A stretch of 64,000 nt of DNA from positions 2,240,001 through 2,304,000 of the forward strand of contig CM000150.2 of NCBI GenBank assembly GCA_000004695.1, given 5' to 3'. Numbering within the stretch: position 1 is the stretch's first letter; each line of letters opens with the position of its first letter. A model generated the notes under the pieces. The model made no database searches and was not told the origin of the DNA. It was given only the letters and a program-made list of their open reading frames with translations. Below, piece after piece: positions 25,504 to 38,191 of this stretch. Source of the stretch: Dictyostelium discoideum (Eukaryota). Position numbers and translations under genes: made by a program.

Positions 25504-25531
25504 TTGGCCATTCTTTCGAATTCTTAAAAAG

Positions 25532-25603
25532 CTCCCTGTCCGGGAATTGAACCCGGGCCTTTCGCGTGACAGGCGAAAATCCTCACCACTAGACCAACAA
25601 GGA
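25532..25603 (-). tRNA. tRNA-Asp (anticodon GUC).
   Basis: The reverse complement is TCCTTGTTGGTCTAGTGGTGAGGATTTTCGCCTGTCACGCGAAAGGCCCGGGTTCAATTCCCGGACAGGGAG. The cloverleaf was checked by hand: acceptor stem with one G-T wobble, anticodon stem TTCGC/GCGAA, loop CTGTCAC, and T arm CCGGG-TTCAATT-CCCGG. It closely resembles metazoan tRNA-Asp-GTC. Confidence 0.9.
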
Positions 25604-31072: not shown

Positions 31073-33030
31073 TTATAATTTTCTTAATTCTTTGTTTCTA
31101 GCAAAGAAAGAAGTTATTACAATTAGACCACCACAAACAGTAAATCCAACACCGGCAATCCAAAAGAAACCATCATTAATATCACCATTTGCAGCGGATT
31201 TATCCATACCAGTACCAAGTCCATAACTTAATAAAGAAATGATAATAGCATACATAGCAAATAAGAAACCCAAGACAGAGGCTAATGGTGTACCTGATGG
31301 AGCATCATCTTCGTCACTAATATCATTCTCAACCTCAACTGATTGAGATGATGATGACTCTTGTTGTTGTTGTTGATTATTATTGGTAGATTGTTCACCT
31401 AATTCTTTAGCAAGATCATCAACAGATTCTTCTGGAGTCATTGGTTTAATAGTTAAATTAGTTGTACTAGTATTTATATCGGAAATATCTGATTTTTCAC
31501 TATCAGTATCTGAATTTTCTTGATGAACATTATCACTATCATGATTGTCATGAGAATTTAATGGGAATTTTGATTGGATGAATGAAAGGAGTGAAATATC
31601 ACCAGCAGCCCAGAAAGCGGAAACTAAAGTCCAAATTGGAATCATTGAACAAGCAATAGCGGTTGGAGAACTTAATTTTGGTGGGTAAACCAATACCCAA
31701 ACTAAAGAGCAGAAAAGACCATCAATTCTAACCCACCATAATGGATTCTTTAATCTATTACCAAATTTGACAACCAAAATTGAACCAACAGCTTCACCGA
31801 AATTAGAACCACCAGTAAGGATACCACTTAAAGAGCCTTGGTGTAAAACCTTTTTAGCAAAAGTTGGGAATAATAAATTCTCTAATAATCTATGTAAAAC
31901 TTGTGGTAATACATAGGTTGTAATAATCCACCAATATTTAACACTAAGAATATGACGAGCACCAACTAATAATGAATAAAAGTAATGGTAGATTCCAGAG
32001 CCAACAGTTTTGAAAGAGTGTATAATTATACCATCTTTTTCAGCTTGTACATCTTTTGGAGTCTTTATAACAGTTGGTGGGAATGGTTGTGAAACCCAAA
32101 AGAAGAATATGGCACCTAGTAAAAAGAAAACTGGTTGATGAGATAAAGCGAAAACTGGTCCTAATTTTTCAATCAATGGAGTTGAAAGGAAAGCACCACC
32201 AGTACCGGAAATTTCATAGAATAAATGAATGTAACCATTCAATTTTGATAATTTCTTATTATCACTTCCCAATATTTGTCTTGGTGTTAATTTTCTACTA
32301 ACCTCAATCATACCAACGAAAATTCCCATTAAGCAATACAATGGTACCACCAAATAACGATTCCATGATCCAAGTTGATCAACACTTATCTTTGTACCAG
32401 TAGATGCACATATTATAATAAAAACTGTAATTAAAATTGCCATTGAAAACATAACACATGATGTAACTCTACTAGCTCTATATTTTTTAACAAATGGTGA
32501 TACTAACATTGATCCAATTGACTTTTAAAATTAAGTAAAATAAAATAAAAAAAATAAAAAATTAGTTTTACATTTTTTTTTTTTTATTATTATTTTAATT
32601 TTTTACTTACTTGTGATAAAAAATAAATAATATTCATAATTGCTAAAAATGTAACACCGTTATCATTTTCAAATCTTGTAAGGACAACGAGACCAAGAGC
32701 ACTTGAATAAGTTTCAAAAGCGAATTTATAAAACATTGAAGCAAAAATAATTTTACACTCGTCCCAGTATTCAGTTAAATAAAATCTTGGGTTATATTTA
32801 CTGTATTTACTTTGAAAATTTTTCATTTCTTTTTTATCATCATCAGATGGGGAGCTTTCATTTTTTTCTAAATCCTTTTCATTGTAATTAATTATTTGGA
32901 TTTCTTTAGTATTATTATTTTCGTTAGATGTAACATTTTGTAATTCTACTCCCTCATTATTATATATATTGTTATTTATATTATTTATATTATTTATATT
33001 ATTATTATTATTATTGTTGTTGGTTTCCAT
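31073..33030 (-). CDS. Multi-pass membrane transporter (MFS-like, 10-12 TM) with an N-terminal poly-Asn cytosolic tail. Exons 33030..32611 and 32521..31073.
   Basis: The GTAAGT donor (plus coordinates 32610..32605) and TTTTAAAAG acceptor (AG at 32523-32522) join ...IIYFLSQ|SIGSMLVSPFVKKY in phase 0. There are many hydrophobic segments (FWIAGVGFTVCGGLIVITSFF and others). Family not identified. Confidence 0.65.
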
Positions 33031-33425
33031 CTTTTTTTTTTTTATTTATAAAATTTAATTATTTTAATTTAAAAAATAATAATAATAAAAAAATAAAAAA
33101 AAAATTTACAAATAATATGTAATGTTATTAATAATGAATAATTATTGATTGGAACTGATAACAATGATGTAGTATTTTTTAATTATTATTTTTTTTTTTT
33201 TTTAAAAAAATGGTTTTTTTTTAATTATTATTTTTTTTTATTTTATTTTTTTTTGACAAAAAAAGGATAATTGTTTTTATTTTGGAAAAAAAAAAAAATA
33301 AACAATTTATTATAAAAACAGATATGTATGTGATTAATAATGTTTAAAATGGTTGTGTGTGTTTTTTTTTTATTGTGAAAAGGGTTAAACAAAACTAATG
33401 GTGTTTGAGAAAAAAAAAAATAAAG

Positions 33426-33457
<32 letters not shown>

Positions 33458-33565
33458 GTTGAGTGGGAGAAATAGAAAGAGAGAGAGAGAGATTTATTTT
33501 AGTTTTTACTACCAATAAACTGACTAAAAATATTAATTTTAATAGCTGCCGAATAAATAGTCTGG

Positions 33566-33601
<36 letters not shown>

Positions 33602-34144
33602 TTTTAAAAATATCAGTTTACAAAATTATTTTTGGATAGACACTACACCTCTTAAAACTGGCCGACTTATTTATTAGTTTTGATTTATTTATTTTTATTT
33701 TTTTTAATTTTAATTTTTTTTTTTTTAAAAGTCTACACCGAAAACAGGGGAGTGTCGTTTGACTTTTCCTTTTAAAATTTTTTTTTTTTAAAAATTTATT
33801 TTTACTTTTTTTTTTTTTTAAACGAATCTGATGGGTGTTTAGTGCCGTTAGGGCAAGGAAAAAAAAAAAAAAAGAAAAAAACCTATTTTAAAAAACGAGA
33901 TTTTTTTTTTAAATTTTTTTTTATAAAAAAATGCAAAGATAAACGGCTTTTGAAAAAATTTATTAATCCGAACCCGGCTTTTGGGAATAAAATTATTTTT
34001 ATCTTTGTTTTTTTCCTATGATAGCACCATAAGGTTTGAAATAAACAATAAAATAATCGATTATTTTTTTTTTATATAGATCACATCAATATTCGAGTGT
34101 TGGTGTTTTTTTTATTCACACCATAATTCTAATAATTAATAAAA

Positions 34145-34179
<35 letters not shown>

Positions 34180-34360
34180 CACCTTAATAAAATAAAATAA
34201 ATAAAATTTTAAAAAAAAAAAAAAAAAAGAAAAAGATATTTTAGTTTAAATTTTATTTCTTTTTTTTTTTTTTTTTTTTTATTTTTTTTTAATTTTTATT
34301 TTTTTTATTTTTTTTAATCAACAATTATTTTATTTTTAAAATTTAATTATTTGTCGTTCA

Positions 34361-35050
34361 TCACCAATATTTTTTAATAAGATAAACAAATTTTTTTAAT
34401 ATAGTAGTTTCTTCAACTATTTGAGAACAACAAATTTGTGAGTTTGGAGGTGCAGTAATTTCTTGTGGTTGTTTGGACTCAACATTATTATTTGTTATAT
34501 TTGTAGTTGTAGTTTGAGTTTTATAATCATTTTTATTATAATTATTATTAATGTTGTTATTATTATTAATAATATTATTATCATTATTGTTGGTTTTTCT
34601 TTTATTTATAATTATATCTTCAATTTTTTGTTTTTTTATAAAGGCTGAAGGACTTTTATAAATTTCATTAGCAATGGCTTTCTTTATTTCACTTTGGCCA
34701 AAATCTTTATTACTATTATTGTTATTATTATCATTATTTTTATTATTTTTATTATTATTATTATTATGATTACTATTATTATTATTATTATTTATATTAT
34801 TATTATTTTTATTATTATTTTTAAAATTATTATTATTGATTGGATTCAATGCTAGTGAATGTATTAAATTGGAAGAGTTCACTAAAAAGTTTTCAGAAAT
34901 TGATGAGGTTGAAGGAGGCCCTGGCGGTGTCCTTAATCTTAAATCTCCATTATTATTCTCATTATTTTTTTCTTGTTTTTGTCTTTTATCTAATTTTTCA
35001 TTATTATTAGAATTATAATTATTAATTAAATTATTAATGTTCAAATTTAA

Positions 35051-35143
<93 letters not shown>

Positions 35144-35842
35144 TTTATTATTTATATTATTTAAATTATTATTTATATGATTATTTAAATTATTATAATT
35201 ATTATTAATATTATTTGTATTAGTTATTTTTATATTATTATTAATGAGATTAGTATTAATTTGAAATCCAATATTATTATTTCTTTTTGTTGTTGTTATT
35301 TTATTTTTATTCCTTTCAAAATAATCTTTTAGGGGTTTAGTAACTTGGAGTTTTGGTGGAGAGGCATTTTTTAATCTTGATCTTGTTTGGATGGTTGATT
35401 TTATTATGATTTTTGTTGGTTCTTTAGTTTTTGGAGGTTGAGAGTTTTTTATTGATTTTTTAGCCAAACATATTGTGCAATTTTTAACAAAATTTATTGA
35501 GTCAATTGTGTAACCATTCCAGATAAAACGAAGTGATCGAAGAATTTTTATTGTTTTAGTTATACTATAGTGATTACTTCCATGGCAATATCCGATTATT
35601 GAATTTTTAATATGATTACTAATAGGTGTCAATACTGTTTTTAATCTATTTTTTATTTTTTGTCTTGATCTAAGACACTGAAACCCACTCTTTATTACTG
35701 GATAATACTTCCTCTCTTTTAAAAGTAACTCAGTTTCCTCTAATTCATTTATACCTATCTCATTCTTCTTATTTGATATAAATTTATAAATATTTTCATA
35801 TTGAGAAATTGATTTTAATTTTAAATTTGTTTTTTTTGTCAT
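34361..35842 (-). CDS. Poly-Asn-rich protein whose only recognisable domain is an N-terminal retroviral/retrotransposon-type integrase zinc-binding (HHCC, Integrase_H2C2) domain.
   Basis: GYCHGSNHYSITKTIKILRSLRFIWNGYTIDSINFVKNCTICLAKK fits the H-x3-H ... YWpgm..di..yv..C..C...K integrase N-terminal zinc finger. No DDE core or RT domain follows. The rest is (AAT)n-encoded poly-N, ending ...ICCSQIVEETTILKKFVYLIKKYW. The 493-codon ORF is intact. Confidence 0.6.
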
Positions 35843-36259
35843 TATTTTATTTTATTTGTTTATTAACGAACCAATACAAATAATAAAAAAAAAATTGTTT
35901 AGAAAAAAAAAATAAAATAAAATAAAATAAAAAAAAATAAAATAAAATAAAATAAAAAAAAATAAAGCCTTATAGAAACACGTTATAATTAAAAAAAAAT
36001 TTTTAAAAAATAATTTCCAAAACAAAACAGTTTCCTTTTTTGGAACCCGATCAACCCTAATTAGTGTTATTGAATATTTTTTCAATAAAATTATTTAAAA
36101 TTAAAAATTTATAAATTAGCTATTTTGGGAATTATTATAATAAATCTATTTATTTTTTATTTTTTATTTTTTATACACAAATTTGATGAAAATTATTTAT
36201 ATAATTAATATAACAATTTCCTACCAAGAAAAGAAAAAATTTTGGAATTTTATTTATTT

Positions 36260-36935
36260 TTAAGAGAAAAATATCTTTTTCTTTGTTTGAATCATCATAC
36301 GACAAACAGGACAAGTTCCAACCTAATTATTGTTAATTTTATTATTTAAAAAATTAAAAAAAAAAAAAAAAAAAGAATTAGTAAAATAATATATAAAATT
36401 AATTTTAAAACTTTAAAATTTAAATTATTTAATTTTAACTTACCATTGAAGAACAATCAAAACAAGTGACAACATGAGAACATGGTAAAAAGACAACATC
36501 TCTAACACCTTCATAACAAATTGAACAACTTCTTTTTGAATCTTCATAGGTTGTTGAAGTTTGTTTAATTTTCAAATGATAAAGATAATCACGTAACATT
36601 GGAATACCAAAATAAAGTATAATACTTGTTGATAAAGCAATAACAAACCCACCATACATTAAAGTTTTAAATTTTGAATCGGCAAGATCAAAATCCAATT
36701 TATCCTTTGAGAATTGAAATGGTTCATTAACTAATCTCCATTGAATATCGTTACCAATCTTTCCAATTTTACATGATAAAACAGTGTATAAATTAATATT
36801 TGGTCTTAACACTCTCTCTTCTATTAATTGACCTAATAATTTTCTTTTTCCAAGTAATATTTCAAAGAATCTTGTCTAAAATAAACCAAAACAAATACAC
36901 CTACATGTATTAGTAATAATAATAATAATAATAAT

Positions 36936-36996
<61 letters not shown>

Positions 36997-37646
36997 TTAT
37001 TTATATATTTATTTTTAAAATTAGTACTTACAAATAAAGAATCGCCAGGTGATTGTAGTATAAATTTTGAAAAACTATTCTCTAGTGGGAATACTACATT
37101 ATCAGTGATTACATTTATAGTTTCACCTAAGGAGTCAGTTAAGGTGAATGATGGTACAGAGGTATATTGTTGTGATATTACACTTGACATTGTGGCCAAT
37201 GATGAATGTGCACATTCAAAGATTAATGATGTTGTGGTTTGAATTGCCAATACTCCACTATTTGCATTATTAGTTGTTGTGGAACTAATTATTATTGGTA
37301 TTGTATTTGAAGCTGCAGTCGATATAACATCTGATGCTGATGATGATGCTGTTGCTGTTGCGGCAATTGCAGATGATATATTTGATGATGATGCATCTTT
37401 TATAATATTTGTTAATAGTGGAGAAGTTGAATTCAACCTTGAATAAAGTGCAAAAATTAATTCACCTTCAGTGATTGAAGATGCTGCTGCAGCTAGTCCA
37501 TTTTTACTAATTGAATTTATTAACACCTCTTCTAATTCTTTAAAACTTGAAATCTTATAAATACTTGACAAAAATCTATAACTTTTAAACCAATATACAA
37601 ATTTATATGTGAAAAAAGCTAAAGGAATAATAACTTGATTCCTCAT
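36260..37646 (-). CDS. MUL1/MAPL-like membrane RING E3 ubiquitin ligase, about 369 aa. Exons 37646..37032, 36875..36444, 36322..36260.
   Basis: Two TM segments and a C-terminal RING that is complete only after splicing: CSICYEGVRDVVFLPCSHVVTCFDCSSM|VGTCPVCRMMIQTKKKIFFS*. The GTAAGT donors are at plus coordinates 37031..37026 and 36443..36438, and the acceptors are TTTTAG (36877-36876) and TTAG (36324-36323). All three junctions are in phase 0, and an in-frame TAG lies immediately upstream of the exon-2 acceptor. Intron 1 holds an (ATT)n repeat. Confidence 0.75.
36914..36996. repeat. (AAT)n/(ATT)n microsatellite inside intron 1 of the MUL1-like gene.
   Basis: Seen directly. The track reads it as poly-Ile, and that reading is rejected as coding. 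Confidence 0.85.
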
Positions 37647-38095
37647 TTTTCTTTATTTTATTTGTAAACAATTATAATAACTATTTTATCTGTGTGGTGG
37701 TTGAAATTTTTTTTTTTTTTTCATTTTTTTGTTTTATTAAAATAATTTTTTGTTTTTATTAAATTCAATTAAAATAAATTGTTTTTTTTTTTTTTTACAA
37801 AAAAAAAAAAAAAAAATTAAAATTAAATTTTTAATTACCAAATTTGACAAAAAAAATATAAATCCATTTTAAATTTTAAAAAAAAAAAAGTTTCCTTTTA
37901 AATTAGTTTATTTTATTATTATTAGTATAAATGGTTAAAATAATATAAACATTCATCGAGTAGATTTACAATGCAAATTTTTATTTTAATTATTCCTAAA
38001 TTTGGTTTATTGGTATTCCTGTATGGTTGATCACTAAAAAGTAATAAAAAAAATAAATCGGTTAGACGTATTCAAAATGAAATCTCAACAAATAA

Positions 38096-38167
38096 TCCTT
38101 GTTGGTCTAGTGGTGAGGATTTTCGCCTGTCACGCGAAAGGCCCGGGTTCAATTCCCGGACAGGGAG
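38096..38167 (+). tRNA. tRNA-Asp (anticodon GUC), identical in sequence to the minus-strand copy at 25532..25603.
   Basis: TCCTTGTTGGTCTAGTGGTGAGGATTTTCGCCTGTCACGCGAAAGGCCCGGGTTCAATTCCCGGACAGGGAG. Followed by CTTTTTAT. Confidence 0.9.
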
Positions 38168-38191
38168 CTTTTTATTTGAAAATTTTAAGGT

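Follow-up and report, generated by a model that had tools for sequence, protein, structure and literature searches.

Host genes derived from integrases are, to our knowledge, documented almost only in animals (GIN1, NYNRIN, KRBA2, SCAND3, ZBTB11 and Imagin), and the HHCC finger of ZBTB11 is the only cellular one that we know to have been studied functionally. GIN1 and NYNRIN keep a DDE-type core, and integrase N-terminal domains (NTDs) act inside intasomes as zinc-stabilised docking and DNA-contact modules. GIN1 and NYNRIN have been described as integrase-like or integrase-containing (PMC5384227, PMC2836005); in ZBTB11 each of the four HHCC ligands is required for repressor function (PMC5384227). 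Transposons make up about 10 % of the Dictyostelium discoideum genome (PMC5633606). The integrase (IN) NTD of DGLT-A, a resident long terminal repeat (LTR) element, consists of a 74-amino-acid (aa) N-terminal extension (NED) plus an 80-aa zinc-finger (ZF) region, and this IN-NTD/NED binds the TFIIIC subunit Tfc4 (PMC6101501). The subject of the present analysis is a gene, here termed the H2C2 gene, at positions 34361–35842 of a 64,000-nucleotide stretch of D. discoideum DNA (assembly GCA_000004695.1, contig CM000150.2, positions 2,240,001 to 2,304,000 of the forward strand; hereafter the window).

The H2C2 gene is probably a host gene derived from the N-terminal region (extension plus HHCC bundle) of a Ty3/gypsy-type integrase, captured before the species that carry it split, stripped of the DDE core and serving as a binding module without enzymatic activity. 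Since a DDE core, reverse transcriptase (RT), RNase H, LTRs and target-site context are all missing, the gene is neither an integrase nor a retroelement. It would add a clear case from the Amoebozoa, outside the animals, to a kind of transposon domestication that is already known, and its host is a model organism amenable to genetics.

Integrase similarity and predicted fold

The complete coding sequence (34361..35842, minus strand; 493 codons and a stop) is a single exon on an AX4-type chromosome 1; the intact open reading frame (ORF) of 493 aa reported in the first-pass annotation agrees exactly with the ORF list. Assembly GCA_054883475.1 shares 99.8 % identity with the window across 21.5 kb, and its gene calls include exactly this product. 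The probability that its 338 non-repetitive codons stay open by chance was calculated as 6e-15, and the two other sense frames contain 47 and 147 stops. Integrase_H2C2 (PF17921) was the sole Pfam family assigned by hmmscan (aa 78–130, 30.7 bits, E 3.5e-7; curated gathering score 25.5 bits), and its score was 33.2 bits when the N-terminal 152 aa were scanned alone; no rve/DDE, RVT or RNase H domain was found in the 493-aa protein at E values up to 10. The earlier statement that the gene carries the integrase H2C2 domain only, with neither DDE nor RT, is therefore correct. Its description as an excellent match at aa ~85–135 holds for the presence of H2C2, but is too strong for a score of 31 bits and too narrow for an integrase-like part that begins at aa 11–32. 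In mitigation, the D. citrinum orthologue scored 38.6–42.1 bits against the same family (29.2 bits for the orthologue of a diverged D. discoideum isolate, L002), and in its predicted fold the window protein agrees with the N-terminal regions of integrases.

The helical zinc-binding domain of integrase HHCC (H2C2) type is predicted for aa 76–133 (35444..35617, minus strand). A pattern search located the putative ligands of AX4 and L002 at the spacing H87-x3-H91-x30-C122-x2-C125 and found this pattern in D. citrinum too; the spacing falls inside the canonical range H-x3-7-H-x23-32-C-x2-C (PMC5384227). The corresponding codons, all on the minus strand, are CAT for His87 (35582..35584), CAC for His91 (35570..35572), TGC for Cys122 (35477..35479) and TGT for Cys125 (35468..35470), each placed by the pattern and by alignment with the integrase matches, in which His87 is invariant. 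L002 and D. citrinum also have His87; D. purpureum has another residue there, and in the same protein His91 is replaced by Gln and Cys122 has no equivalent. Score, ligand pattern and predicted fold all place the window protein in Integrase_H2C2.

An exhaustive HMMER (phmmer) scan of 1.84 billion representative proteins with aa 1–192 as the query (E<=1e-3) returned eight matches, all of them H2C2-bearing save a repetitive 483-aa protein (P0007) of no evident relevance. Four are short H2C2 fragments, one (P0008) is a complete pol, and another (P0003; E 3.7e-5, aligned from aa 13) is a retroelement pol fragment that has H2C2 and a DDE core besides an N-terminal part resembling RNase H. The best library-wide match was LOC127841320 of Dreissena polymorpha (P0001; E 5.2e-7). 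The HMMER alignments to P0006 and P0003 start at query aa 12–13, and pairwise BLASTP alignments start at aa 11 (P0006) and aa 32 (P0003), so that similarity to integrases begins 55–75 residues upstream of His87; the N-terminal extension therefore appears to have been kept too, beyond the aa 85–135 first recognised. This extension (NED, or degenerate YPYY-type region; aa 11–75; 35618..35812, minus strand), which ends in a β-hairpin at aa 60–73, was delimited by the phmmer and BLASTP alignments, the structural model and a family hidden Markov model (HMM), which aligns it with the D. purpureum orthologue.

The closest relative by sequence, P0005 (41 % identity over 61 aa), is encoded on a Logan contig from SRR16020809 (L009; 1473 bp, 19 % GC). 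This contig carries a frame-shifted integrase remnant with a YPYY-type stretch, H2C2 and pieces of a DDE core in three frames.

In the alignment of the window protein with integrases (A4), the columns H, H, W, G, C and C are invariant. Past C-x2-C the integrases run into the start of the catalytic core ('...PF..v..D..G'), where the window protein instead reads 'KEPTKIIIKST', a basic linker without the catalytic Asp. The linker (aa 126–200; 35243..35467, minus strand), which lies where the DDE core starts in real integrases, was defined by composition; it is strongly basic (18 K+R, 3 D+E, pI 11) and conserved in L002 and D. citrinum. The module itself has 14 K+R versus 1 D+E. Judged from its sequence, the protein would be incapable of DNA integration. 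A scan of metagenome contigs for relatives of the module gave none, and word-indexed protein searches with aa 1–192 or with the four-species N-terminal alignment gave no match.

An AlphaFold2 model, computed from a shallow alignment of six sequences, was confident over aa 60–135, with block means of the predicted local distance difference test (pLDDT) of 84–94 for aa 71–130 and 55 for aa 61–70; aa 1–58 were of low confidence (<50). The model contains a β-hairpin at aa 60–73 (strands 60–64 and 67–73) and helices at aa 76–87, 94–103, 111–120 and 123–133. In a Foldseek comparison with the PDB, the top nine matches were integrases of prototype foamy virus (PFV) and murine leukaemia virus (MLV; probability 0.75–0.97, E about 0.15–0.4), and in a viral library the top matches were fragments of foamy-virus Pol/integrase (probability 1.00, E about 1e-3); integrases were placed first in three libraries. 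With so small a domain, and with 40 % of the query disordered, the E values are weak; the ranking is nonetheless consistent. The fold, as modelled, is the helical bundle of integrase NTDs. Sequence searches of the PDB with the single sequence and with a profile gave chance-level matches only and no integrase, so that integrases were recovered there by fold comparison only.

These results also bear on the reading that the H/H/C/C pattern arose by chance in a protein of low complexity, with no integrase homology. Such a reading could draw on the shortness of the domain (~55 aa), on a single-sequence Pfam score just 5 bits over the threshold and on the PDB sequence searches, but it is scarcely credible given that three orthologues each pass the curated threshold with up to 42 bits, that library-wide phmmer matches to H2C2 proteins reach E values down to 5e-7, that the H, H, W, G, C and C columns are common to the protein and to integrases, and that the three fold libraries rank integrases first. 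The threshold, homology, column and fold evidence refutes it for practical purposes.

Conserved position, open frames and selection

Syntenic loci were fetched through orthologues of the flanking major facilitator superfamily (MFS) protein. The order RING gene, H2C2 gene, MFS gene was the same in AX4, the diverged D. discoideum isolate, D. citrinum and D. purpureum, and one copy of the H2C2 gene was present in the window and in each of these fetched loci. The orthologues comprise 476 aa in the diverged isolate (L002:7209-8639; assembly GCA_054859355.1), 375 aa in D. citrinum (L003:7705-8832) and 321 aa in D. purpureum (L004:7566-8531). The gene is thus conserved in place across three group-4 Dictyostelium species, and the view that it is a maintained gene is borne out by its intact, syntenic state in all of these genomes. 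In the loci fetched from P. violaceum and T. lacteum, the gene order is broken and no homologue lies inside.

The D. purpureum orthologue gave no Pfam match and does not contain the HHCC pattern. It retains V-L-x-P, F-x-W-x-G-Y-x-x-D, the C-terminal K-K-F-F and an open frame, and pairwise BLASTP aligned it at the equivalent position (E 5e-5). A family HMM built without D. purpureum was searched against the 294 ORFs of three loci and recovered the syntenic D. purpureum ORF with 27.3 bits (E 4.7e-8, HMM positions 4–120), the next-best ORF scoring 8.2 bits. In a shuffle control, 2,000 shuffles of the D. purpureum N-terminus gave <=10.1 bits versus 30.5 bits for the real sequence. On these comparisons the D. 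purpureum ORF is clearly orthologous, despite the loss of the ligands, and it constitutes a natural zinc-ligand-free variant of an HHCC domain.

All four orthologous ORFs are open. The chance of this was 6e-15 to 6e-13 on non-repetitive codons (263–338 per species, each with its own base composition), and the other sense frames across the four orthologues contain 26–147 stops. Length differences and indels between orthologues are all in frame (multiples of three), including those in the Asn-rich low-complexity tract (aa 201–383; 34694..35242, minus strand), which was delimited by translation and orthologue alignment. Within this tract, aa ~301–345 form a non-repetitive island that occurs only in the two D. 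discoideum sequences. Conservation of a second island, SEIKKAI..YKSPSAFIKKQKIEDIIINKRKT (aa 384–417; 34592..34693, minus strand), extends to L002 and D. citrinum and, in weak form, to D. purpureum, and a conserved motif, EETTILKKFVYLIKKYW, occupies aa 477–493 (34364..34414, minus strand) as judged from an alignment of the final 24 residues of the four orthologues. The proteins end in KKYW (AX4), KKFW (D. citrinum) and KKFF (D. purpureum). This C-terminal motif has stayed conserved and in frame although the repeats before it vary, which indicates translation of the whole ORF. The remainder of the ORF, which had been described as poly-Asn without stops, is indeed open, but it also contains the basic linker and two conserved C-terminal islands.

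The KKYW, KKFW and KKFF ends formally fit the C-terminal KKXX dilysine pattern; there is no transmembrane segment upstream.

Selection was estimated by the Nei-Gojobori method as the ratio of non-synonymous to synonymous divergence (dN/dS), with aa 12–135 taken as the module. Between AX4 and L002 the module differs by 19 synonymous and 16 non-synonymous changes, which gives a dN/dS of 0.17 (binomial p 4e-6 against neutrality); between AX4 and D. citrinum, for which dS is near saturation (about 1.2), its dN/dS was 0.20. The whole gene gave 0.37 versus L002, or 0.24 after low-complexity codons had been masked; neighbouring genes gave 0.05–0.22, and up to 0.38 for an uncharacterised 830-aa ORF. 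Between the neighbours and their D. purpureum counterparts, synonymous sites are saturated (dS 0.9–1.3). The gene is under purifying selection. A position conserved in several species and a maintained ORF under purifying selection, two of the features by which domesticated genes are recognised, are both present.

A neutral transposon relic, or an annotation artefact whose frame stays open as a by-product of AAT-repeat-rich sequence, is very improbable. Open non-repetitive codons at p ~1e-13 to 1e-15 beside stop-rich alternative frames, a position kept in three species though synonymous sites are near saturation (~1.2 in the module, 0.9–1.3 in the neighbours), dN/dS values of 0.17–0.20 with p 4e-6 against neutrality, and a C-terminal motif that continues in frame past variable repeats all speak against it. 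Consistent with a relic are the Asn-rich repeat, which makes up about a third of the ORF and easily stays open, the faster evolution of the gene compared with its neighbours and the D. purpureum copy without the defining ligands.

Several observations weigh against a maintained integrase-type host gene and qualify the reading that we prefer. Its dN is about ten-fold above that of its neighbours (0.24 vs about 0.02, versus D. citrinum), and constraint is moderate at the whole-gene level. All four zinc-ligand positions are substituted in the D. purpureum orthologue, whose 321 residues include zero cysteines; it follows that zinc binding is dispensable for a role conserved across species, or that this copy has changed or lost its function. 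No homologue beyond the three Dictyostelium species was seen in the protein collections searched. This last point carries little weight, because known orthologues are missing from these collections, and two homology searches recovered not even those of D. citrinum or D. purpureum, so that absent matches say little about distribution: exact look-up in a collection of 15 billion proteins finds neither the 493-aa protein nor the 476-aa orthologue, but does find the products of adjacent genes from the same assemblies.

AX4/L002 divergence peaks over the NED plus HHCC module (35400–35849; L002:7209-7640), where it reaches 6–12 % per 150-nt bin; in the flanks (33000–37700) it is 0.7–5 % in most coding and intergenic bins. 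The proportion of synonymous differences (pS) between AX4 and L002 is 0.27–0.29 in the module versus 0.04–0.12 in neighbouring genes. Weaker codon bias as the source of the high dS was ruled out, since the fraction of C-ending codons and the GC content at third codon positions (GC3) are like those of the neighbours. Introgression from D. citrinum was likewise ruled out: AX4 and L002 are equally distant from that species (61–62 % identity). For the two haplotypes compared, the peak could possibly stem from old balanced haplotypes, from gene conversion with diverged element copies or from a local mutational hotspot.

Origin of the module and proposed role

No LTR-like or terminal inverted repeat (TIR)-like pair was found within 28–42 kb, where the repeat families are all of low complexity. 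In tblastn searches of the 64-kb window and the fetched orthologous loci with the pol proteins P0003 and P0008, the H2C2 stretch alone was matched. An Rfam scan of 32.5–38.6 kb found tRNA only. Coding sequence for RT, RNase H, protease or Gag does not adjoin the gene, whose neighbours encode RING, MFS, Kelch-RING and NAT10 proteins. A flanking LTR or pol remnant, which would have marked the gene as a solo element fragment, is thus absent from the repeat survey and the pol search alike.

The tRNA gene that the first-pass annotation had placed 2.2 kb away lies 2,254 bp from the start codon of the H2C2 gene, but its value as evidence for the origin does not stand. DGLT-A inserts 13–33 bp upstream of tRNA genes and Skipper-2 about 8–136 bp downstream of them; the sites of Skipper-1 are centromeric clusters (PMC5006619). 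At this locus the RING gene separates the H2C2 gene from the nearest tRNA gene, and no tRNA gene lies within 10 kb of the D. purpureum orthologue. With this distance, the intervening gene and the tRNA-free D. purpureum locus, tRNA proximity was ruled out as evidence of origin.

The proposed capture of an integrase N-terminal module as a domesticated gene accords with the significant H2C2 match, the intact syntenic orthologues and the module dN/dS. By parsimony, capture would predate the split of D. discoideum and D. purpureum, and with it that of D. citrinum. DGLT-A and Skipper families occur throughout the dictyostelids (PMC5006619), so that donors would have been available. The donor may have been DGLT-A-like or Skipper-like and, with lower probability, a Ginger-type DNA transposon. 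Apart from the retained module, no part of the element would have survived, the catalytic DDE core included, and the module would have become fused to the highly basic linker, to a disordered tail rich in Asn and, at the C-terminus, to a short conserved motif.

Tdd-4 and Tdd-5 are cut-and-paste elements of D. discoideum with transposases that combine an H2C2 finger with a DDE core (PMC2836005), and the module could have come from such a Ginger2/Tdd-type transposase rather than from an LTR retroelement integrase. The remnant on L009, the closest relative, would fit, as it carries H2C2 and DDE remnants; it is too short to tell if an RNase H precedes them. We nevertheless consider this origin improbable. 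A ~40-aa 'YPYY' motif directly upstream of the finger is limited to Ginger1 and a few Gypsy groups, including DGLT-A and Gypsy-1_DD, and is absent from Ginger2/Tdd (PMC2836005), whereas similarity of the window protein reaches 55–75 residues upstream of His87, including an alignment from aa 32 to P0003; there are, moreover, no flanking TIRs apart from low-complexity inverted repeats. The N-terminal extension makes a Ginger2/Tdd donor less likely, and as an exclusion of that donor class it is weak.

For a Ty3/gypsy-derived protein, the following mode of action is proposed. In D. discoideum and D. citrinum, zinc held by H87/H91/C122/C125 would stabilise the basic helical bundle, and bundle and basic linker together could bind nucleic acid, dock on a partner protein or on the protein itself, or both. 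The site of action would be the nucleus, where the protein might serve as a chromatin- or transcription-associated adaptor. By analogy, a non-enzymatic nucleic-acid- or protein-binding adaptor in the nucleus is most likely, given the basic module and linker, the behaviour of integrase NTDs, the finger of ZBTB11 and the binding of Tfc4 by the DGLT-A NED. The retained part (NED plus HHCC) corresponds to the functionally least understood region of integrase, which in the resident DGLT-A contacts TFIIIC. Two lineages with the zinc ligands and D. purpureum, which lacks all four yet keeps the gene, form a natural experiment; their comparison can show the role of HHCC freed from catalysis and the need for zinc.

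An integrase origin is also compatible with a function against transposons, in which the stand-alone NTD would be a decoy or a dominant-negative subunit, as in the Gag-derived restriction factors Fv1 and Ty1 p22. We regard such a function as rather unlikely. The free NED plus HHCC module might conceivably compete with the intasome of DGLT-A (or Skipper) for Tfc4 at tRNA genes, or co-assemble with the integrase and block it; we judge this mechanism, too, to be on the unlikely side. The NED plus ZF of the window protein (~135 aa) consist of the same two parts as the IN-NTD of DGLT-A (154 aa), the NED of which binds Tfc4 residues 446–608 in two-hybrid and pull-down assays (PMC6101501), and a target would always have been present, as DGLT-A occurs in D. 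purpureum and in deeper dictyostelids (PMC5006619). Evolution faster than that of the neighbours and the divergence peak over the module are a pattern of conflict genes. Yet the average dN/dS of 0.17–0.20 is well below 1 and positive selection was not detected; all D. discoideum copies of DGLT-A are reported to be incomplete (PMC5633606), while the gene is nonetheless intact there, and the copy that has lost its ligands is that of D. purpureum, a genome with competent DGLT-A elements. Interference with retrotransposon targeting, if true, would bear on the control of tRNA-gene-targeted elements in a compact haploid genome. A decoy, if true, would be an integrase-derived transposon-control gene outside animals, and the divergence peak would have been left by an arms race or by balanced alleles.

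Neighbouring features and comparison with known systems

Downstream of the H2C2 gene lies the MFS gene (31073–33030, minus strand), which is identical to DDB_G0268862 of AX4 chromosome 1. Upstream lies the RING-finger gene (ORFs 36435–37646, plus a short 3′ exon to about 36260). This short third exon, at 36265–36330 (minus strand), codes for the end of the RING (...CPVCRMMIQTKKKIFFS), and the spacer to the H2C2 gene is therefore ~420 bp, versus the ~590 bp suggested by the ORF list. This upstream intergenic region (35843..36260, minus strand), bounded by the start codon and the terminal RING exon, contains blocks conserved with L002 and D. citrinum; it presumably includes the promoter. Further neighbours are a Kelch-RING gene, NAT10 and the uncharacterised 830-aa gene.

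The nearest tRNA gene is tRNA-Asp(GTC) at 38096–38168 (plus strand). It has the same sequence as a tRNA-Asp(GTC) gene at 25531–25603 (minus strand), to which it is divergently oriented, and the pair flanks a gene block of ~12.5 kb that includes the H2C2 gene. This layout is conserved in L002 and D. citrinum and missing from the D. purpureum locus. In D. discoideum, NAT10 and the RING gene are separated by the 830-aa gene and a tRNA gene, both of which the D. purpureum locus likewise lacks. The public D. purpureum model at L004:2695-7296 joins NAT10 and the RING-finger gene (1325 aa), probably as an annotation artefact.

No paper on an integrase-derived host gene in Dictyostelium, and none that mentions the identifiers of the neighbouring genes, was found in the literature searched. 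A review entitled 'Retrotransposon Domestication...' uses the term for the target-site behaviour of elements, not for host genes (PMC5633606). The expectation that the gene would be undescribed stands to this extent, but an automatic label, 'integrase zinc-binding domain', may exist for the AX4 protein.

In DGLT-A and Ty3 (PDB 7q5b), the module lies within Gag-Pol, is followed by a DDE core and a GPY/F domain, and belongs to an LTR element, whereas in the window gene it is free-standing. The likeness to the DGLT-A IN-NTD (NED plus ZF) is drawn from the published description of DGLT-A. The Dreissena protein P0001 resembles the window protein as a non-element protein with YPYY-type and H2C2 modules and no DDE core. 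It differs in its length (1348 aa), its three tandem modules, its C-terminal C2H2 fingers and its molluscan host, and identity is 27–32 %. From its sequence, it appears to be a parallel case and not an orthologue, with the same integrase region apparently domesticated independently and in several copies.

GIN1, NYNRIN, KRBA2, SCAND3 and the crustacean Imagin are likewise single-copy, long-conserved host genes derived from Gypsy or Ginger integrases (PMC2836005, PMC3575427, PMC12863088). All are animal genes, and they are described with an integrase/transposase (DDE-type) domain, which the window gene lacks. GIN1 and NYNRIN also bear the HHCC motif, and neither vertebrate protein was among the library-wide HMMER matches.

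GIN1 and NYNRIN, which had been proposed as analogues, are less close to the window gene than is the HHCC-only finger of ZBTB11. As in the window gene, ZBTB11 of vertebrates has a cellular integrase-type HHCC finger without a DDE core that is conserved across species (PMC5384227). The two differ in that ZBTB11 adds a BTB domain and C2H2 fingers and has the spacing H-x6-H-x29-C-x2-C, whereas the window gene has H-x3-H-x30-C-x2-C, has kept the N-terminal extension and has no other globular domain. The library-wide HMMER scan revealed no sequence relationship between them. On this comparison, the window gene is most simply viewed as independent of ZBTB11, a separate event in the Amoebozoa.

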